Below, piece after piece: positions 3,933 to 58,124 of a stretch of DNA of 64,000 nt. Both the position numbers and the translations under genes were made by a program. The stretch is from Chamaesiphon sp. (GTDB lineage Bacteria > Cyanobacteriota > Cyanobacteriia > Cyanobacteriales > Chamaesiphonaceae): positions 64,001 to 128,000 of the forward strand of contig CBDFFH010000020.1 in assembly GCA_965246715.1 (NCBI GenBank), in the 5' to 3' direction. Position 1 is the first letter of the stretch; every line of letters starts with the position of its first letter. The notes beneath the pieces are model-generated. The model saw only the letters and a program-made list of their open reading frames with translations. It made no database searches and was not told the origin of the DNA.

Positions 3933-4427
3933 AGAGTGGTTTGGAATATACCCTAGTGTTGAACGGAGCGTTTATGGAGTTTATCCCCTATATGCCTGAG
4001 TTTGACCTAGAACATCAGATATTTCAATACTGGGGCGATGGTGAAATGCCGATGGATTTTACGGCTCCTGATGATACTGCCAAGTATGTCGCCGCAGCCG
4101 TGAGCTGATGATCCAGACGTTCCAGACTTGGCAAACACGGCATTAGAAGTCGCGGGCGATACTCTAACCGCCAAGCAGTTGAAAGCCACTTATGAAGCGG
4201 CAACGGGCACCCAATTAACTGAAAAACGGTTGGGCAGTATCCCCGAAATGCAAGCTTGGATTGCTACCAAAAAAGCGTCCGCCAGCTCACTGGCTGAGTA
4301 TATATCGGATCAATATGATTATGCGATGGTATCGGGTAAAGGCAAGCTCGATCGCCTTCAGAACGATCGCTATCCTCAAATCGAACCCATCACCGTTAAG
4401 CAATTTCTAGATCGAGAAAATTCTTAA
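3933..4427 (+). pseudogene. NmrA-family oxidoreductase, 5'-truncated and frameshifted
   Basis: Nucleotide paralog of 5841-6320 (GGTTTGGAATATACC...CAATACTGGGGCGATGGTGAAA). Confidence 0.85.
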
Positions 4428-6464: not shown

Positions 6465-7514
6465 AATTTTCACGCTTATGCAGCCAAAACAGCAGGTGGC
6501 AAGTTAGAGCCTTATGACTACGATCCAGGTGTCCTCCAGGATGCGAAGAAGTCGAAATTAATGTCGAGTACTGTGGGGTCTGTCATAGCGAGGGCAAACT
6601 GGTTGCAAAATGAGCTGGGGAATCGAGTCACTATCCTCTGGTTGCTGGAAGCATGAAGTCACGTAGTGGGTACAGTGAAGCTGCAATTGGCGATCGCGTA
6701 GACCACCTTAGAAATAGGACAGCGAGTAGGTTTGGGTTGGTATTCGCATTCTTGTATGCACTGTGACGTGGTGCATGTCTGGCAACCAAAATTTGTGTTT
6801 ACCGCAGAACAAACGATCGTCGGTCGATCTATGAAGGGTTTGCCGATAAGGTAGCGCGCCCATGCCGAATGGGTAACGCCCATACCTGCCGGAGTCGATC
6901 CTGCCAAAGCTGGCCCCCTATTCTGTGCGGGTGACAAGACTAGGTGTTCAATCCCCTCGTGCAGTTTGATATCAAACCGACCGATCGCGTTGGGGTAATT
7001 GGGGTTGGGGTAAATTGGGGCACCTCGCACTCCAATTTCTGCGAGCAAAAGTGGGGCTGCGATGTCACTGCTTTTTCAAGCAATCCACGATAAAGAAGCT
7101 GAAATCCTTACCGAAATGGGAGCTACCCACTTTGTCAATTCCCGCGACTGCTGAGGCGATGAAAGCCGTTGCCAACTCATTGGATTTGATTATTTCAACG
7201 GTGAGAAAACCACTCTCGAAGTAGATTTAGATTGGAGCACATACATCAATGCACTGCGTCCCAAAGGGCGATTGCATTTTGTGGGCTTTGCTCCCAATCC
7301 GATTCAAGCCAGTCTGGTGCCGTTAATCTTTGGGCAAAGATCCGTGTCTGGTTCGCCAACGGGTAGTCCGAGCACTGTCGCTCAAATGCTCGATTTTTGC
7401 GTTCGTCACAACATCGAACCATTGATTGAAATATTTCCATTTAGTCAAGTCAATGAAGCGATCGATCGTTTGAGATCGGGAAAAGCTCGATATCGAGTTG
7501 TTTTGAAACACTAG
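6465..7514 (+). pseudogene. Zn-dependent alcohol dehydrogenase (Ahr/YjgB-like), many indels
   Basis: Fragments YCGVCHS, GQRVGLGW, AGPLFCAG and C-terminal VNEAIDRLRSGKARYRVVL in shifting frames. Confidence 0.85.
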
Positions 7515-7796
7515 TCAACGGACGATCTTTGGATGTAGTAGCAAATTCGAGCGTTGAATCACAGCTTAAAAGATTGTCAGTTGGAGTAAAACCTATTACT
7601 GGTCTATAGTTCGGCAAATGCAGCGGGGACGACCAAAACCGGAATCGGGCATTTTGATACCAAAAGTGAGATCGAGGCGTATATTCGCACTGCGATGAAA
7701 GTGACAGGCGATCGCACACCTTAACCTCGATGACGAATTCGATCGAGACGCGGACTGGCGGAAGGGGCACGTAAAACTTCTAAATAGGAGAAATTT

Positions 7797-8552
7797 ATGA
7801 AGACATTGGAAAATAAAGTTGCCGTGGTTACAGGCGGAACTTCAGGAATTGGTAAAGCTACGGCCATCGCTTTGGGTGCCGCAGGTGCAAAGGTGGTGTT
7901 TTCGGGCAGGCGCGAGTCGGAAGGCGAACAGACTGCTAACTCTCTGCGCGAGGCTGGTGTCGATTGCTTATTCGTGAAGTCGGATGTAGCGAGTGAAACT
8001 GATGTCCGATCGCTAATTCAACAAACAGTTGATAAGTATGGGCAACTGGATTGTGCTTTCAACAACGCTGGCATCGACTCGCCTACAAAGCCACTCCACC
8101 AGCAGTCGATTGAAGACTTCGACAAACTGATGGCGATTAATGTGCGGGGTGTGTTCTTGTGCATGAAGTATGAAGTTCAACAGATGCTGACTCAAGGAGC
8201 TGGAGTCATTGTCAATAATTCTTCAATGGGTGGTTTGATTGCATTTGCGGGGATAAGTCCTTATAACGCTAGCAAACATGCTGTGATGGGTTTGACTCGT
8301 GCTGCCGCACTCGACTACGCCAAGCAAGGCATTCGGATTAATGCTATCAATCCTGGTTTGATTGCCACAGAGATGATGGATCGCCTCAGCACTGGTGGCA
8401 CTCCAGAGCAGCTTGCCTCATCGATTGTGCCGATGGGACGCTTGGGTCAATCTGAGGAAATTGCCGCAGCCGTTGTGTTCTTGTGTTCTGATGCTGCCAG
8501 TTATATGACAGGTCAGTCTCTCGTACTCGATGGCGGATATACAGCAGCCTAA
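7797..8552 (+). CDS. SDR family oxidoreductase
   Basis: TGGTSGIG, NNAG, YNASK; RBS AGGAG. Confidence 0.95.
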   Translation: MKTLENKVAVVTGGTSGIGKATAIALGAAGAKVVFSGRRESEGEQTANSLREAGVDCLFVKSDVASETDVRSLIQQTVDKYGQLDCAFNNAGIDSPTKPLHQQSIEDFDKLMAINVRGVFLCMKYEVQQMLTQGAGVIVNNSSMGGLIAFAGISPYNASKHAVMGLTRAAALDYAKQGIRINAINPGLIATEMMDRLSTGGTPEQLASSIVPMGRLGQSEEIAAAVVFLCSDAASYMTGQSLVLDGGYTAA

Positions 8553-48253: not shown

Positions 48254-49630
48254 TTAGAAACGACAAGCATCAACAAAATTACTCATTCTAGATTGAATAT
48301 CGATAATCTGATCGATCCATTCATTTATAGGTTGTACACTTAAGGGAATTGTGTTGTTTGTAATCGACACAACACACTCATCTCCTAAAACTATTGGAGG
48401 AAGTATCATTGATGTTCTATTGAAGTTTTTTATGGACAAAATATTCTGTCCCCAAACTCCTCTCTCAATTAAATTTTTTCTTCCTACTGAGAGTAAGAGT
48501 CTTAGTCGTTCTGAATATCTCCCCTGTAAAATGCCACTTTCTAACTTTTCTAATTTAGCTTCGACTAAATGCTTAATTTTTTCTAAGTCAGGAAGTCCAG
48601 CATTTTTTAGGGATTCTTGAAGCCACTCTTCAACATGGATATTATCTCGATATTTAGCAGCTTGTGTAGCGATAATAAAAAATGCGAATCCAGGATCTGC
48701 CATATCTTTAAAAGATTGTATTCTTTCACCCCAAACATCATAATCTTTTGGTACATTCAAAGAATGAAATAGCTCTTCAGGTAAATTAAGACAGAGAGTA
48801 GCTAATGCAGAAGAAAATTTATATGCTTCAATAGTTTCGCCGATCCCAATTGAATTAGCTAAACAGTGGGCTGCGACTGAGTAAATTGCTAGTTCAGGGT
48901 TGTATAAATTTTGCAATCTTTCTTTCTCAATTCTAGATTTTTCTACTAGTCTATAATTTTCATCAAGAAATGAAAGCCCCTCTTGTATGACTTGCAACTC
49001 CGCGTATGTAGCTGTAACTTCAGTTAATGAAGTCATACTGAAAGGCACACGAATAATACGTTCATCAGATTTGTAGAACGTAGTGAAAAGAATAGGTCTA
49101 TCTTTTCTAGGCGTACCATCAGCACCAAATTCAACACCAGTAGAATATCTGTAGTGCCAAGTCTTACCAATACAATTATTTAAATTAACATAGTATTTTT
49201 CGGTATAGTAAGTTGAAAGTCTGGCTCTGGCTCTCTCAGAATTAGCACTTACTATTCTATGAAACTCTTGTTCATTTTGATTAGTCCATGCGTTGATGGC
49301 ATTATAAATAAAGATTAACTGCTTTTGCCCCCAGAGAGTAGATGTATGATCTAACCAGTGTGTTAGCTCATGTGTACAGGTAGAATAAAATTTTACTATT
49401 GAATTGTGATTTGCTTGCAGCACATTTTTTTGTGAGTTTAAGTCTTCATTCCTGAAATGATTAATGCTTTTAAAAAGCTGATTAAAAGTTTGCATTTCTA
49501 AATAGTCAAGACAAACTATTTGTGAAAGGTCGTCATAAGATCCGATCGTTTCAAGATTGGCAAATATTCCAAATTTCCTAGCATAATTATTAAGGTTTTG
49601 AACACTTCTTCTGTTTTTAGATTCGACCAT
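48254..49630 (-). CDS. hypothetical AT-rich protein with HExxH motif
   Basis: 458 aa; THELTHWLDH; distal SLTE. Confidence 0.75.
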   Translation of the reverse strand: MVESKNRRSVQNLNNYARKFGIFANLETIGSYDDLSQIVCLDYLEMQTFNQLFKSINHFRNEDLNSQKNVLQANHNSIVKFYSTCTHELTHWLDHTSTLWGQKQLIFIYNAINAWTNQNEQEFHRIVSANSERARARLSTYYTEKYYVNLNNCIGKTWHYRYSTGVEFGADGTPRKDRPILFTTFYKSDERIIRVPFSMTSLTEVTATYAELQVIQEGLSFLDENYRLVEKSRIEKERLQNLYNPELAIYSVAAHCLANSIGIGETIEAYKFSSALATLCLNLPEELFHSLNVPKDYDVWGERIQSFKDMADPGFAFFIIATQAAKYRDNIHVEEWLQESLKNAGLPDLEKIKHLVEAKLEKLESGILQGRYSERLRLLLSVGRKNLIERGVWGQNILSIKNFNRTSMILPPIVLGDECVVSITNNTIPLSVQPINEWIDQIIDIQSRMSNFVDACRF

Positions 49631-51171: not shown

Positions 51172-52230
51172 CTAACCGAAGGTCGCAGTTACAACAGATG
51201 AAATCGTGCTGATATCCGCCCGATCGATGGCTCTCGCCAGACCAGTAATATTACACATACAGGTTTCACAGTCCATCTCATCGCGGAGAATGCACTTACC
51301 AACGCTGTCACCATTGAAGTTCAAGCTCTCAACTCGGTTAGCCACCGAGCAGTCTGCGGGACTGTGAATGATATGCTCTTCGTCAAACAGAAACTCATTC
51401 ACCGTCGGCTGATTGAAGGGGAATAATTGCCAGCCATACTTCTGAGCTGCTGCCACGATCGCCTGCTTGAGCTGTTGACGCTCGATCGGTGTAAATGCCA
51501 CCGGATCGGTTTTAGAAGCTGCTGTGGTGCCAGAAACCACGATTCCGCGCAGCTTTTCGATGTTGGCAACCAGCCAGTCGATGGTTGCTGAAAATTGGTC
51601 GATCGCCGATCTGGTGAGGGTCAGATGTACATACGCACCTCGTTCAGAGCGATCGATATTCCGCGCGATCGCGGCGGTCATCCCGGTTAATTCTTTGTAG
51701 CGATGACTGGCAAAGAAGCCTAGCGGATCTCTAGCTTGATTATGAGCATCTGGCAACCCATCCAGGCTCACGAAGACGCTGACCGATCGCGGCAATGATG
51801 GCAGCTTAATCGAGCCATTTGTTACTACCCAGACTACTGGAAATAATGCGGCGGCTTGCTCGATCGCTTTGGGTGCGAGTGCAGGTTCTCCGCCCACCAG
51901 CGTGACATGAACGATGCCTTGCTTTTGCAGCCGCTCTAACGTTTCAAATACTTGTGCTTCTTTACGTTCGTGGTCTGGTTTTGATAGCTGTAAGTATCCC
52001 TGTACCCGATCGTGTTGCGTCCATTCTGGTGGGTAAACATAGCAATAGTGACATCCCGCATTACAGCGATCGGTAATTTCGATCGATGCGGCAAATTTGG
52101 TGCTGCTACCCCGCAGTAGATGTGATGCCACAGTTGCGGTTGCCTGCGCGATCGTTACGGTGCGCTGAAGCTTCTCGGTGAGAGAATAAGGCGGTTGATA
52201 AGGCACGAATGTGGGGGTAGACATTTTCAT
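51172..52230 (-). CDS. radical SAM protein
   Basis: CNAGCHYC, GGEP, VTNG, VSLDG; Cys-rich C-terminus CILRDEMDCETCMC. Confidence 0.92.
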   Translation of the reverse strand: MKMSTPTFVPYQPPYSLTEKLQRTVTIAQATATVASHLLRGSSTKFAASIEITDRCNAGCHYCYVYPPEWTQHDRVQGYLQLSKPDHERKEAQVFETLERLQKQGIVHVTLVGGEPALAPKAIEQAAALFPVVWVVTNGSIKLPSLPRSVSVFVSLDGLPDAHNQARDPLGFFASHRYKELTGMTAAIARNIDRSERGAYVHLTLTRSAIDQFSATIDWLVANIEKLRGIVVSGTTAASKTDPVAFTPIERQQLKQAIVAAAQKYGWQLFPFNQPTVNEFLFDEEHIIHSPADCSVANRVESLNFNGDSVGKCILRDEMDCETCMCNITGLARAIDRADISTISSVVTATFG

Positions 52231-52429
52231 TAAAAATGAAGTGCTATCACCTATCGTAGAACATAAGTTATTTTCACGGTCGTTATCCATTGATGCTCAT
52301 GGTAAAATTACATGGAGGAAGGTTTAGATCGCTAATAGAGTAGGAAATTTTATTTTCTACGTTCAAAAATCTCGTTCAAGATCGAATACTTGTATAGCTT
52401 AAAGCTAAAATATTATTCACCCAAGAGCG

Positions 52430-53070
52430 TAGATTTAACAGCTTAGAAGTTATGGGGAAAAGTTCCGCCAGACAAGTAGAAGGTGTTAACGGCCTTTGAA
52501 ACAACTAAGGTCGAAATAGTCTAAGTTTTATGAGAGGCATCAAGCCAGAGCGTTCTTTTCTTATTAACCACTTACAGGTTGTAAACTTCTCTAATTTTGG
52601 TGAGAAATTAGAAGAGGGAGCGGAAGACCATTTATCTATAGTTCGGTCATATTTGTCTCCCCTTTTGACAATAGATTCATCTATAGGCTCAATTCTCATC
52701 AGGCTCTAACTATTAAAAACTCATTTCACATTGTCCTGTGACGTGGCGGCGTTCTTACCCCTTTGCCTGGTGAGCGACTACCATTTAAAGGTCGTAGGTG
52801 CGGAGAATCAATCTGTTAATTCAAGTGGCATTACTGCTACTTGAATTAGTGAGTTTAGCCAATTTCTTCCGAGAGATCGGGGAGATTTTAGTAACTCAGA
52901 GAATCACTAGTAGCGGAAGGTTTTATAGGATATTAATAGATATTACTCTAGTTGTGGAAGCTGCCAGAGGCTATCGAACTAATGAATGCCTTGGTGATAA
53001 AGTCTCTTCGAGACAACTCGTTTAGCCCTTTAGAGTTATGTCAGTAATGTCATGATAATATCTAATGTCC
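52430..53070 (+). ncRNA. candidate large structured non-coding RNA
   Basis: No credible ORF; more than 10 helices including long-range nested stems; G-U pairs work on the + strand; GAGA tetraloop; no CGATCG. Confidence 0.6.
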
Positions 53071-53116
53071 AGATATCGATCGATACCTTTCTCTTTCAAC
53101 CTCAAATTAATTACTG

Positions 53117-53845
53117 ATGGTACAAACTACATTTACAAAGCAGAAAAGGGAACTCGAAAAAGCAGTAGCTTGGATCGAAAAAATTCGCGCTCAAGAAGTG
53201 CGCCAGCGTCGTTATAACGATCGCGATGAATTAGAAGAAGAAATTAGAGAAGCCTATGTAGATCATTCACCCGAAGAAATTGCCCATAAAGCGATCGAGA
53301 TTGTGCGTGAAGTAGTGAGTCAACACGCTGCTCGTCAACAAGCTAATTCAGCAAATCGTGGAACTTTTGCCTGGAGTGGTATTAATGTTGAACTAACCGT
53401 CCCCCAATTACGCACGCTTCAAAGTGCCCATGTGATATTTAGCGAACTGGTTAGAAAATTGCCGCGTCGTAATCCTAAATTAGTATACAATACTTCGATC
53501 GACAATCGCCCAGCATTCGCTCATATCAAGCAGAGACACGAAAAAACAGAAATTCGATATACTCCCTACGAAGAAGAAGCAAGTAATCGAATTCGCACCT
53601 ATGAAGAAAAGCATCAAGTTATCAGTCACTATACACAAAAAATAGAAATTGACTACGGGTTGGAAATCAAAAAGTTAACAGAATTAAATGAGATGGTGGA
53701 CGATCTCGGTACTGCCATTCAAATTGCAATCGATGAAGCTAATACGAAAGGACGTAGCAACGACCCACTTATCGATGATTTAATTCAGAGAATTGGATCG
53801 GTATTACTAGAGAAATTACCTTTAGATTCCTCGATCGATCCTTAA
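53117..53845 (+). CDS. uncharacterised helical-hairpin protein (tentatively DIP1984/DUF7873-like)
   Basis: 242 aa; QQAN...VRKLP...AIDEAN pattern with amphipathic helices. Confidence 0.75.
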   Translation: MVQTTFTKQKRELEKAVAWIEKIRAQEVRQRRYNDRDELEEEIREAYVDHSPEEIAHKAIEIVREVVSQHAARQQANSANRGTFAWSGINVELTVPQLRTLQSAHVIFSELVRKLPRRNPKLVYNTSIDNRPAFAHIKQRHEKTEIRYTPYEEEASNRIRTYEEKHQVISHYTQKIEIDYGLEIKKLTELNEMVDDLGTAIQIAIDEANTKGRSNDPLIDDLIQRIGSVLLEKLPLDSSIDP

Positions 53846-54469
53846 ATGAAAACTCCATCGATTCAATTATCTCTAGCAGGAGATCGACGATTGATTCGTC
53901 TTACTCAAGCAACAGCAATAATTGCTTATCATCAATTTTCTAGTGTTAATCCTAGATATTTGATGGGAAAAATAAGATCTTTCAATAGTAAAGATCGCCT
54001 TTTGTACAATCTATGGAATTCCTCCTACTTTACTATCCTAGATCGGCAAGATATTAGAACTATCGAATCCGAATTAAATCGGCAAATTATCGATAATAGC
54101 TTGTGCTTAGTGGAAAATGAAGGTAAATTATTTGATGGCAATACAAATGCAGTAGATATTTGTAAAGGCTCTATCCCTAGTAGTTATATCTTCCGTTATG
54201 GCATGAAGTTTACGGTAGAACCCATTGTCAAAAGCAAAATGCTTGGCATGAAAAATCTAGATCTATTTTGGCAAGATCGAGATTTTAATTTTCACTATGT
54301 TCGTTATTGTGGTTTACTATCCTCTCCCCGCCAACAGCAGGTAAAATTACGATTTTGCCATCCTCTAGACTTGTTGAAAATCTGGACTTGTACTGTAGCT
54401 GAGTTTCAACCTCGACAAATTCTGATGATTCAAAAAATCTATCCATGCAAAGGATTCTACTTGAAATAG
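53846..54469 (+). CDS. hypothetical protein abutting the upstream gene
   Basis: 207 aa; TAA-ATG junction. Confidence 0.6.
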   Translation: MKTPSIQLSLAGDRRLIRLTQATAIIAYHQFSSVNPRYLMGKIRSFNSKDRLLYNLWNSSYFTILDRQDIRTIESELNRQIIDNSLCLVENEGKLFDGNTNAVDICKGSIPSSYIFRYGMKFTVEPIVKSKMLGMKNLDLFWQDRDFNFHYVRYCGLLSSPRQQQVKLRFCHPLDLLKIWTCTVAEFQPRQILMIQKIYPCKGFYLK

Positions 54470-54506: not shown

Positions 54507-57500
54507 CTATGTTTGGACGGCTCCTAATCCAGTCAGAGTGGCTTGCTGCGCGATCGTCAATCCTGTTGCACCCTGAATATTCATGCCCTCATACAATCGA
54601 TCGGCTCTGAGGGTTTTGAGACACTCACCCGTGCTGACATCCCACAGTTTAATCGTCTCATCCTGACTCCCACTCGCCAGCATCCGACCATCTGGGCTAA
54701 AGCTGAGGGAATAAATAGAGCCAATGTGTCCCTGCAATATATGTAGGCAGCGACCATCTCGCACGTTCCATAAGCGAATCGAACCATCGAAACTACTGCT
54801 GGCAAGAGTTTGACCGTCAGGGCTAAATCTCACCGACCAGATACTACCCACATGACCGTTGAGGACATGTATGCAGAGATCGCTAGACAGATCCCAGAGC
54901 CTCACCTCCCCGTCAAAATGTCCGCTGGCGATGAGGCGATTGTTTGGACTGAATCGGACAGAATAGATGCCACTGGGCGTATCTAGTACCTTGATACACC
55001 GACCGTCTGACACGTTCCATAGTCGCACGGTGGTATCTTGACTACCGCTGGCAAGCGTTTTTCCATCTGGACTGAAGCTAGCCGACCAAATCCAACCAGT
55101 ATGACCCGCTAAAACTTGCAAACACCGACCATCTGACACGTTCCAGAGTCGCACGGTGGTGTCTTGACTGCTGCTGGCAAGCATTTTTCCGTCTGGACTG
55201 AAATTGGTCGAATAAATACCACCGTCATGACCTGGCAATACATGTAAGCACCGACCATCTGCCACATGCCACAGTCGCACGGTTTGGTCGTTACTGCCAC
55301 TGGCTAAAATCTGACGATGAGGATTCCAGCTCACCGTCCAGACCCAATCAGTATGACCTGTCAACACTTTGAGGCATCGATCTCGATCCCACAGCCGAAT
55401 CGAACAGTCTAAGCTGCCACTCGCAAGCATCTGACCATCAGGGCTGAAACTCACTGAGTGAATGCCACCTGAATTTCCCTGGAGGACTCTGAGGCACCGA
55501 CCGTCTGCCACATTCCACAGGCGAACGGATAGATCGTTGCTGCCACTAGCGAGGATCTGACCGTCGGGGCTAAAGCAGACCGTCCACACCCAGCTCGAAC
55601 CATCATGCAGAATATCGATACATCGATCGCTGAAAATATCCCACAACCGAATCGAGCCATCCCAACTGCCACTAGCGAGGATCTGACCGTTGGGACTAAA
55701 GCTCACCGAGTAAACCCAGCCAGTGTGACCCAGGAAGGTCTTGATACATTGCCCAGCGGCGACATCCCACAGCCGCACCGAACCATCCGCACCGCCGCTA
55801 GCGAGGATCTGACCGTCAGGACTAAAACTGACCGAGATGACTCCACCCTCATGCCCCAGCAAGGTCTTAATACATTGCCCAGAGGCGACATCCCACAGGC
55901 GAATGGTCGCATCATCACCACCACTAGCGATCGTTTGACTGATGCCGGAGTTAACACCAACAGGACTCAAGCTCATCGTCCACACCCACCCAGTATGCCC
56001 CAACAAGGTGTTGATACATCGACCGGAAGCAACATCCCACACTCGCACGATCGCATCATCGCCGCAACTGGCAAGGGTGCGACCATCATGGCTAAAATTA
56101 ACCGCTCGCACGCCATTCGTCTGTCCCTGGAAGGTTTTCAGACACCGACCGGAGGCGAGATCCCATAAGTGAATGGCCGAGTCCTCACTGCCACTGACTA
56201 GCATCTGACCGCTCGCCGACGGCAGATCGACCCCAACGGGGCTGAAGTTGACCGAGTAGACCCAACTGCGATGCCCTTGCAGTGTCAAAAGCTGTTTGCC
56301 ATCTACCACCTGCCACAAGCGGATCTTACCATCGGCATCGCCTGTAACCAATCGATCGCCATCGGGACTAAAAGCTAATGAAGTAACGCAACTGAAAGTC
56401 TCGGCAAACACCGATTTGGCAAGATCGGTATTGCGAAGATTTACTCCTACCAAGTTGGCTTGGCGTAGGTCGGCTTGCCATAAAGATAGTTCGGAAAAGT
56501 CCCAGCCACGTAAATCGGCTTGTAAATGGATGAGGAGGTTGAGGAGGTTTCCGGCCAGATAATTCGACTGAGGTGCTTGTTGTTGCCGCTCCAGCATGGC
56601 TTTCAACTGCTGTTCGATCGCTTGAGGATGCCCGAACTGAAGCGTTAAATCTTCAACGATCGATCTCCCGATTAACCGCTCTTGCATCTGGCGGATGTAG
56701 TCTTTTGCCTGAGCTTTGACGCTCGCGTGCAGCTTTAATTGTGTTGGTGTTTGCGTGGTAATTTCTGCAACGATACAGCGGACGAATCGATCGGTAATAT
56801 ATTCCAACACTACAGGCTGAAGCGAGAACCGTTCGGCTTCTTTTTCGATTAACGATCGCCGCAACAACGACTGAATCGTATTTGGGAGTTGACGTTTGGA
56901 GGTAGTAGTGAGAAGGTCTTCACTTAATTCAAACAATGAAACAGGCTCGCGGTTAATCGCCAACCAAAAGATAATTTCCCGTTCGAGTTCCGACAATCGC
57001 TCGAATTGTCGCTCAAGTAGGTCTCGAATGTCATCAAAGATCAACATCCCCTGTCCGACATAATTTAAAACCTCGATAATTCTGCCATTAAACAGTTCTT
57101 GAGTTGTCGCTGCTACCAGCTTTAGTGCCAAGGGATTGCCACCATAATGAGCGATTAAAGTTTCCCATTCAGATTCTGTCCCCGTAAATTTTCCTTGATA
57201 CCGAAACAGTTCTCTGCCTGTTTCTGAGTTAAGTCCCTTGAGCAATAATGTTTTTACCGATCGATCCGCACCTTCGAGCGGCACGATCTCTTTAGGCTTT
57301 TCGCGGCTGGTAAGTAACAAACAACTCTGATGAGCTACCTCGCCAATCTCCTTGAATAGTTGCCCGTAGCCTTCATAACCCGATCGATATTGTCCGGTTT
57401 GTCCGGCACTGAGGATCGTCTCAGCATTGTCTAGAATCAGCAGACAGCGCGAGGATCGTAAGCCCTCCATCAGCTTAACCATTCTGGCATCTAAGCTGTT

Positions 57501-58124
57501 GGGTAGTGCGATATCCTCTCCGAGTGCCCGCAATAACAAGGGCAGTACGCTCTCTAACCACTCTTCAAACGGTGGGGCGTTTTGGAGCGATCTCCATACC
57601 ACTACCTCAAACTCCGATCCAATTTCCCGTATCAGTTTCGCGGCTAATGTGCTTTTGCCCATCCCACCAATTCCCAGAAGTAGGACTAGACGACACTGTT
57701 CCTCTATTACCCATCGCTTGAGCTGCATGATGTCTTCATGCCGTCCACAGAAGATCGAAGTATCGATAATAGCGTTTCCACAATCTGTCTGGGGTTGATG
57801 CGATCGATTTTCATGCTGGGAGGCTTCGCCAACGATTATCTCCTCATCATTATTTGGTCGAGTATAATCGCTTTTGCTTAACTCCAATCCAAAGGCGCGG
57901 AATGCCCACTGTAATGATTGCTTATCTACAGGTTCCGATCGTCCTAACAGTTTGGCGATCGTATTGAGGGATAATCCCATCCGTTCGCTGAGTTCTTCGA
58001 GCGTAAATCGATCTCCGGCATTCTCAGCCAACTCCGCCCGTACTTTTGCCGTTTGAAATTTGTCCCAACCCTGCGCTGTCAGAATGACTCCTCTGTAGCG
58101 TTTAGCTTTTTGTAGTTGCATCAA
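54507..58124 (-). CDS. HTH + NB-ARC/STAND NTPase + WD40 repeat protein
   Basis: [28 protein letters not shown], pentapeptide linker, about 14 WD repeats. Confidence 0.95.
57809..57832 (-). repeat. micro-element family A
   Basis: CG^TTGGCGAAGCCTCCCAGCATGAAA^ATCG. Confidence 0.88.

Follow-up and report, generated by a model that had tools for sequence, protein, structure and literature searches.

Among bacterial RNAs, large and ornate ones are rare, and the majority have no known function; two, ROOL and GOLLD, reportedly exist as RNA-only oligomers (PMC12286853). Imitation of the RNAs of translation has been described in small elements: leaders in Firmicutes and Fusobacteria carry a conserved GUAA bulge that imitates 16S ribosomal RNA (rRNA) and has been proposed to bind ribosomal protein S4 (PMC3849166, PMC7247131), and YrlA-type Y RNAs mimic transfer RNA (tRNA) (PMC4201824). 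We describe a locus in a 64,000 nucleotide (nt) stretch of Chamaesiphon sp. DNA (GenBank assembly GCA_965246715.1, contig CBDFFH010000020.1, positions 64,001 to 128,000; the whole stretch is called the window and its own numbering is used throughout), in which a non-coding RNA of about 750 nt lies directly upstream of two genes and contains an arm that resembles a helix of 16S rRNA and follows the 16S sequence of its host. That a real structured RNA is present we regard as practically certain, and functional mimicry of helix 16 by the arm is, in our judgement, very probable. The three components of the locus are as follows.

52340–53096, forward strand: large structured non-coding RNA, its ends estimated from conservation (alignments, upstream profile matches and metatranscriptome pieces within 52337–53076)
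53117–53845, forward strand: gene 1, 242 residues, a distant relative of DUF7873 and the constant partner of the RNA, with predicted helical hairpins and a long beta-hairpin
53846–54469, forward strand: gene 2, 207 residues, of no family, with a predicted C-terminal small beta-barrel of the SH3/Sm/WYL type; it travels with the helix-16-like arm

An 826 nt gap separates a radical SAM gene (51172–52290, reverse strand) from the two forward-strand open reading frames. The initial annotation had placed a structured RNA in this gap at 52430–53070, with the ATG about 45 nt further on; the RNA is real and the limits need correction, as conservation starts at 52366 at the latest (cyanobacterial copies add a hairpin from 52340) and ends near 53096, about 20 nt short of the gene 1 ATG, which the U-rich end of the RNA immediately precedes. 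The gap holds no credible open reading frame, as had been said: the two frames of at least 60 residues (75 residues forward, 64 residues reverse) have no counterpart, because the longest forward-strand stop-free stretch in the AT-rich homologues is 32–108 residues and insertions and deletions break the frames. The absence of CGATCG, offered as a further signal, is a weak one, since 10% of 641 nt windows lack the motif and gaps of that length or longer make up 20 of 255.

Conservation of the RNA was followed through gene 1, which has 126 homologues at E 0.001, a small family of 29 clusters at 50% identity that includes many fragments. Scans of genomes (50 loci) and metagenomes (22 loci) gave 72 loci, 65 of which have at least 700 nt of upstream DNA, and a same-strand match to the RNA profile stands upstream in 64 of these 65 (38 of 39 among loci outside the training set), so that the conserved non-coding region predicted beside homologues of the 53117 frame is borne out. 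The sole locus without an RNA match, L054, has a broken gene 1. Many of the loci are close kin, about 27 being of the rumen Thermoguttaceae type. The taxa on the locus records are cyanobacteria, SAR324, Thiotrichaceae (Gammaproteobacteria), Myxococcota and Planctomycetota, with two further bins under the doubtful labels Clostridia and Chitinophaga, and the intact system is present in cultured, harmless cyanobacteria (Nostoc, Calothrix and Amazonocrinis records). The flanking genes are unrelated and vary from locus to locus. The system is also rare: a strong RNA match was found in 1 of 60 relatives, gene 1 with the RNA in none of 400 other sampled cyanobacterial genomes (weak partial matches aside), the RNA without gene 1 in none of 400 sampled cyanobacterial genomes at the sensitivity of BLAST, and the system in none of the viral contigs and plasmids searched.

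Pairing in the RNA was counted as cells in 31 copies, aligned by sequence only, with the following results for the long-range stem and the kissing hairpins.

52366–52373 with 52882–52889, forward strand: long-range stem P1, 8 base pairs (bp) (230 of 232 cells pair; double changes at 5 of 8 pairs)
52462–52473, forward strand: kissing hairpin A (stem 93 of 93 cells), whose loop 52465–52470 is complementary to loop 52744–52749 (177 of 180 cells)
52740–52753, forward strand: kissing hairpin B (117 of 120 cells; double changes at 4 of 4 pairs)

The kissing loops co-vary, with six different loop/complement pairs among the 46 copies examined, a count in which seven copies were mis-parsed or left without a partner by a crude script, one of them being a deletion copy. 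Four stems have at least seven extra pair types, as against none in 15 tree-based null simulations, and the strongest covarying pair falls in the helix-16-like arm. The forward strand of 52430–53070 folds better than its shuffles (z −2.52, compared with −0.85 on the reverse strand), in keeping with the forward-strand RNA first proposed, and all 13 helices named in that proposal do pair in the window near the places given (11 of 12 pairs in the GATATTACTCTA stem; 8 of 10 in the GAGA hairpin as extended in this analysis). As conserved helices, however, they fare poorly: tested column by column in 30 homologues, by a method that under-counts hairpins of variable length, most pair in 21–65% of cells, and the 14 bp hairpin in 76%. 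Two of them are incompatible with elements that covary: GGGG/TTCC with the kissing hairpin, and the GAGA hairpin, in its long form, with the long-range stem. The initial annotation did not include the kissing loop, the stem that closes the structure over a long range or the helix-16 copy that tracks its host. Its central idea of a large forward-strand RNA tied to the downstream genes is upheld by the 64 of 65 loci, by covariation at the level of helices, by the lack of an Rfam match and by metatranscriptome contigs, whereas its boundaries and many of its helices are not. Two viral contigs (L145 and L146, 2501–2518, reverse strand) hold an exact 18 nt match to kissing hairpin A plus its 3′ element in what looks like intergenic sequence; these 18-mers stand alone, the rest of the RNA and both genes not being there.

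The host-tracking helix-16 copy is the most telling feature of the RNA. It and a second, weaker likeness to 16S lie within the following segments.

52577–52629, forward strand: arm resembling 16S helix 16 with its strands swapped, 52577–52590 corresponding to the 3′ strand with the GUAAA bulge and 52613–52629 to the 5′ strand
52469–52480, forward strand: conserved element with a weaker likeness to the 16S helix 5/6 junction (third-ranking peak, 9.22 of 12 on average, compared with control maxima of 8.0–8.78)

The RNA profile matches the 16S of its own genome at 390–417 (E 0.002), and none of 200 shuffles matched as well. Over nine hosts with a 16S of their own (two near-duplicates having been dropped and L054 having no RNA), the two best 12 nt windows coincide with the opposite strands of a 16S helix at 373–405, taken here to be helix 16; they score 10.56 and 10.33 of 12, compared with 8.5 for the antisense and at most 8.78 for 12 shuffles. 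In 16S the order is purine-rich strand, short loop and then GUAAA strand; in the RNA the GUAAA strand comes first and the cap sits on the opposite end of the helix, with the internal loop retained and the topology permuted. The arm is no pasted piece of 16S. GUAAA is invariant in 18 of 18 aligned copies, and the variable loop base, which takes four different forms, agrees with the copy's own 16S in 8 of 10 homologues and with a relative's 16S in 3 of 4. The arm of the window carries a 2 nt loop insertion and its stems still pair. In permutation tests the arm tracks the host's own 16S (p 0.023 for seven hosts), and with proxy 16S sequences p is 0.0006 for 10 hosts and 0.0008–0.008 for five to seven lineage representatives, these tracking values being inflated by host kinship and by the proxies. 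Homology to the whole 5′ domain of 16S was considered and rejected, peaks past the third falling within the controls, and a boxA-like antitermination site was dropped as inconsistent across eight hosts.

These results bear on the idea that the RNA is catalytic or mobile, i.e. a degenerate intron or ribozyme, or else a decayed rRNA pseudogene. It has highly conserved single-stranded blocks and falls in the size range of large ribozymes, and distant group I cores may go unnoticed by the Rfam model. However, no Rfam model for an intron, RNase P or rRNA matches, no gene is interrupted, one segment skipped in RNA contigs is also found in DNA, and the 16S likeness is short and local, just about 30 nt in swapped order, with nothing in the RNA resembling the 23S of its own genome. 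We consider this explanation highly improbable, and that the initial annotation did not recognise the RNA as transfer-messenger RNA, RNase P RNA or a group I/II intron agrees with the missing Rfam match and the uninterrupted genes. Novelty against Rfam likewise stands, as covariance models matched nothing in the window at E 5 or in the 24 locus scans (14 loci at the gathering score and 10 at E 1).

The presence of the arm goes with that of gene 2, which follows gene 1 in 34 loci and as a cut-off start in L010. All 33 gene 2 loci with enough upstream DNA have an arm score of 20–27 of 28, whereas the 29 loci in which no intact gene 2 was detected score at most 19 and lack the arm (three more loci are too short). 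Gene 2 was found in none of 21 genomes with loci of the latter kind and in both of two controls. Because arm and gene 2 are both missing from the rumen Thermoguttaceae copies, we infer that gene 2 works with the arm. The predicted model of gene 2 has a predicted local distance difference test score (pLDDT) of 87.7, and its barrel is generic, with a best Z of 6.6 (root-mean-square deviation 2.7 over 64 residues) and RimP, Hfq, WYL and Tudor tied below; nucleic acid is a frequent ligand of SH3/Sm/WYL-like barrels. Invariant residues are G, G, F and G, and there is neither a nuclease fold nor an invariant catalytic set. Reverse-transcriptase features (Atlas score 0.93, 146 of 256 shared) were rejected for want of Pfam, PDB or fold backing, and a weak S13-like match (E 0.36) in the protein searches was not used. 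In L062, L065–L067 and L073, gene 2 has long C-terminal extensions (403–627 residues in total). The close relative represented by L056 and L057 has an RNA with a 224 nt deletion between short repeats, equivalent to 52548–52771 of the window, which takes out the arm and kissing hairpin B; in these loci gene 1 is also broken and gene 2 shortened, and the 3′ end bears a transposase-like fragment, so that arm, kissing hairpin B, gene 1 and gene 2 decay together there.

Such co-occurrence would be expected of a type III toxin–antitoxin-like or anti-phage system, in which helix 16 of 16S would be the target that gene 2 attacks or to which it binds, and the RNA would neutralise gene 2 as a host-matched false target until it decays. 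The RNA-then-protein layout, the patchy spread (none of the 400 other cyanobacterial genomes beyond weak partial matches) and the decay of the whole system in L054, L056 and L057 all suit it, and a target mimic would account for host tracking equally well. Nevertheless, searches of PADLOC, PHROGs and PDB gave no match of weight for the proteins of the system, the neighbours are mostly housekeeping genes and not defence islands, gene 2 shows neither a nuclease fold nor invariant catalytic residues, and L037 has an arm without gene 2. We therefore judge such a system unlikely.

Neither window protein has a meaningful match in Pfam or NCBIfam, and to that extent the two-gene unit was rightly called uncharacterised; for gene 1, profile comparison supports a distant kinship with DUF7873. 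Matches to Pfam PF25283 (DUF7873) at E ≤0.1 were obtained for 20 of 69 gene 1 homologues (best E 3.6e-8), and comparison with a true DUF7873 member by hhalign gave a probability of 86% and E 5e-6 over 180 columns. The predicted model is confident (pLDDT 85.6), yet no clear fold match was found with Foldseek in PDB and viral structures or among PDB sequences, and the best Z in a wide search was 9.1, to helical bundles. Gene 1 has been copied together with the RNA in L030, a rumen planctomycete locus in which RNA and gene 1 are repeated in tandem at 6550–8070; as the pair is never apart in intact loci and has been duplicated together, gene 1 probably binds the core of the RNA. Rumen planctomycetes show other arrangements too: L072 has two RNA copies in tandem, and in L037 an RNA copy (1340–2065) lies on the downstream side of gene 1. 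The linkage also bears on the view that the RNA is an ornate one that assembles with itself, in the manner of GOLLD, ROOL and OLE, its helix-16-like loop only a module reused for RNA–RNA packing. Size and kissing loop, the dispensability of the arm in one lineage, and the RNA-only oligomers said to be formed by ROOL and GOLLD speak for it. A packing module need not track host 16S, though, linkage to gene 1 is strict and the GOLLD, ROOL and OLE models are unmatched, and we hold this view to be very unlikely.

Ordinary DUF7873 genes were found in 17 of 301 sampled cyanobacterial genomes. Behind them come tRNA-like units in arrays, which give YrlA matches below threshold in 5 of 8 loci and may represent an undescribed Y-RNA-like array. 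In L133, L136, L137 and L140–L144, about three tRNA-like hairpin units lie about 60–420 nt downstream of the gene, and by eye some promoters in ordinary DUF7873 loci show TrcR-like words. The genome of the window itself has a broken ordinary DUF7873 gene in two pieces (G000:C44:26158–26597).

Neighbourhoods were compared in 27 loci, 73 of 97 listed neighbouring open reading frames being scanned and those above 900 residues left out. RtcB or RtcR adjoins the system in three loci (L015, L019 and L060) and a SLOG protein in one, the other neighbours being unrelated; no Ro60 (TROVE) gene was among the 73 scanned. Between rtcB and the RNA in L060 lies a basic, arginine-rich frame of 241 residues (1349–2071) that has no Pfam match. 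The Anabaena repressor TrcR acts on rtcB and on a tRNA array by way of a site that overlaps the −10 box (PMC10272220). Of 10 cyanobacterial loci, three that are probably related carry the exact site given there, TGTAGTAT, across their −10 box, and L007 has a near match; the whole 6.1 Mb genome of the window holds only 45 such sites per strand. We treat the rtc neighbours, the TrcR sites and the DUF7873 context as possible leads and not as proof. Pairs of sigma70-like −35 and −10 elements were found in 8 cyanobacterial loci of 11 homologues scanned, ending 81–99 nt before the first conserved block, and the window has a candidate of its own.

52300–52308, forward strand: possible extended −10 promoter element, recognized by eye in the bare sequence and not listed by a consensus scan

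Expression was approached through metatranscriptomes, where a small part of the region occurs in ten runs catalogued as RNA. Contigs from six of these ten runs (six studies) and from two other runs, representing relatives at 80–99% identity, were compared. The RNA region 52337–53076 is covered by contigs in 6 of 6 RNA runs; for gene 1 these runs offer a single long piece and two that are very short, and for gene 2 no piece. In another run, whose kind is not recorded, 29 of 30 bins are covered. Such contigs have no strand or level, were chosen for holding this DNA and may include DNA. A skip of 224 nt in one RNA run is a deletion and not splicing, because DNA shows the same deletion.

These observations, together with gene order, are those on which a long cis-acting 5′ leader has to be judged, whose arm would sense free S4 and switch the two downstream genes, a ribosomal-protein leader having been borrowed for stress genes. 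In almost every locus the RNA shares the strand of gene 1 and precedes it by about 20–210 nt, its U-rich end comes just ahead of the ATG, and GUAA mimicry is known from S4 leaders (PMC3849166, PMC7247131). On the other hand, the RNA is much larger and more ornate than known leaders, the tandem copies of L072 and the downstream copy of L037 do not suit a leader, arm-less copies retain the kissing-loop core, and the RNA contigs cover the RNA and seldom the genes. A cis-acting role is in our view quite unlikely.

Conservation of the RNA, its stems and kissing loop, its helix-16 likeness and host tracking, and its linkage to two genes are directly supported. The explanation that we tentatively prefer, at slightly less than an even chance, is that the RNA of about 750 nt, with its strand-swapped host helix 16, would act in trans as a particle with gene 1 and capture S4, or another reader of helix 16, under translation stress. 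We are led to a trans-acting particle because the bulge of the S4 leaders is invariant here and stands inside a fuller, host-matched helix; by analogy with the leaders of Firmicutes, whose GUAA bulge imitates 16S, the arm may bind S4, and to S4 as the ligand we give an even chance. Stress would lift repression and let the RNA accumulate, the gene 1 protein would bind its core, and the accessory arm with gene 2 would capture S4 or another helix-16 reader; the arm might hold free S4 as a decoy or tether, or draw a helix-16-reading factor off real ribosomes, and expression could be part of an RNA-repair or translation-stress response. In a broader form, plausible and on balance somewhat doubtful, the system would be a stress-induced ‘false 30S shoulder’ class of ribonucleoprotein, in which a permuted, host-matched helix 16 (perhaps with the helix 5/6 junction) is carried on a kissing-loop scaffold with a DUF7873-like protein and stores S4 or lures proteins that attack or survey ribosomes.

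Several results weigh against the particle that we prefer, or against parts of the evidence for it. Covariation taken pair by pair is weak and underpowered, with one pair at E ≤0.05; high-scoring canonical pairs number 56, compared with 15–66 in the null simulations, and show no overall excess; and a folding z of −2 or below was reached in only 5 of 10 copies (eight shuffles each). Host tracking judged by own-genome 16S in four representatives is not significant (p 0.083), the inflation of the tracking values noted above applies, the arms of L018 and L052 suit the 16S of other hosts better than their own, and the arm of the window, with 20 of 28, is more degenerate than any other among the 11 scored. 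The joint loss of arm and gene 2 is essentially that of one rumen lineage (Thermoguttaceae), the L037 copy keeps its arm without gene 2 (in an incomplete genome), and about 27 rumen copies persist without the arm, which is therefore not the core function of the RNA. As regards regulation, 24 of 27 loci have no rtc neighbour, the exact TrcR site was not found in the window, a sigma54 motif was sought upstream of 29 loci and not found, and the limits of the metatranscriptome contigs stated above count here as well.

Further segments of the RNA are the following.

52769–52815, forward strand: most conserved central block, with stem 52774–52778/52791–52795 (145 of 151 cells pair)
52817–52848, forward strand: 14 bp hairpin, variable in sequence and missing from some copies (266 of 351 cells in homologues)
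52849–52889, forward strand: conserved block with hairpin 52859–52880 and the P1 3′ strand 52882–52889 (alignment conservation and pairing cells)
52890–53096, forward strand: more variable 3′ domain with stem 52904–52907/52994–52997 and hairpin 53036–53055 (109 of 124 and 184 of 205 cells)

Another Chamaesiphon copy, L013, has an insertion inside the RNA at about 4310–4410 with two imperfect direct repeats. Outside the system, the radical SAM protein of 51172–52290 falls under every NCBIfam cut-off, its best weak matches being viperin-like and PapB models, and its gene is not a conserved neighbour of the RNA. A frame of 458 residues at 48254–49630 (reverse strand) has an HELTH motif, only a weak zincin-like match and a CGATCG density below that of its surroundings, and a protein of 1205 residues at 54507–58124 (reverse strand) combines an NTPase-like N-terminal region with WD40 repeats.

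No description of this RNA was found in the literature covered, which included few subscription papers and did not extend to the 224-motif supplement of PMC5737381. Its likeness to GOLLD, ROOL, OLE and MISL (PMC5737381, PMC12286853) lies in a size of 600–900 nt, multiple stems, pseudoknots and occurrence in several phyla. It differs in having a fixed partner gene and a host-matched rRNA arm, and the covariance models of GOLLD, ROOL, OLE, HEARO and MISL gave no match: MISL was over its cut-off in none of five genomes and GOLLD was found in none of five at E 1. Nor was a phage or tRNA-cluster context found, no viral contig having the gene or the RNA and the 14 loci scanned containing one tRNA. 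Gene 1 resembles DUF7873 (PF25283) by profile alignment and by the subset of homologues that match the Pfam model, yet it forms a small separate subfamily with a large RNA upstream instead of tRNA-like arrays downstream. This gives the DUF7873 family its first functional lead, two branches travelling with tRNA-like or rRNA-like RNAs. With the S4 leaders the arm shares a GUAA bulge resembling 16S; those are small cis leaders of rpsD operons, whereas the present RNA is about 750 nt long and precedes two non-ribosomal genes of unknown function, its arm has both strands of helix 16, swapped and tracking the host, and no Rfam leader model matches it. With Y RNAs such as YrlA (PMC4201824, 10.1101/312249, PMC7790460) it has in common that a non-coding RNA mimics an RNA of translation, tethers proteins and has a link to RNA repair; Y RNAs, however, are about 100 nt long, mimic tRNA and bind Ro60, whereas the present RNA mimics rRNA, and no YrlA match was found in the window or in the large-RNA loci scanned. 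If the ‘false 30S shoulder’ is borne out, it would be the rRNA counterpart of the tRNA-mimicking Y RNAs, and the host-matched copy of a ribosomal protein site would make rRNA mimicry in trans open to direct testing. The RNA is hybrid-like between an S4 leader and a Y RNA yet a member of neither.

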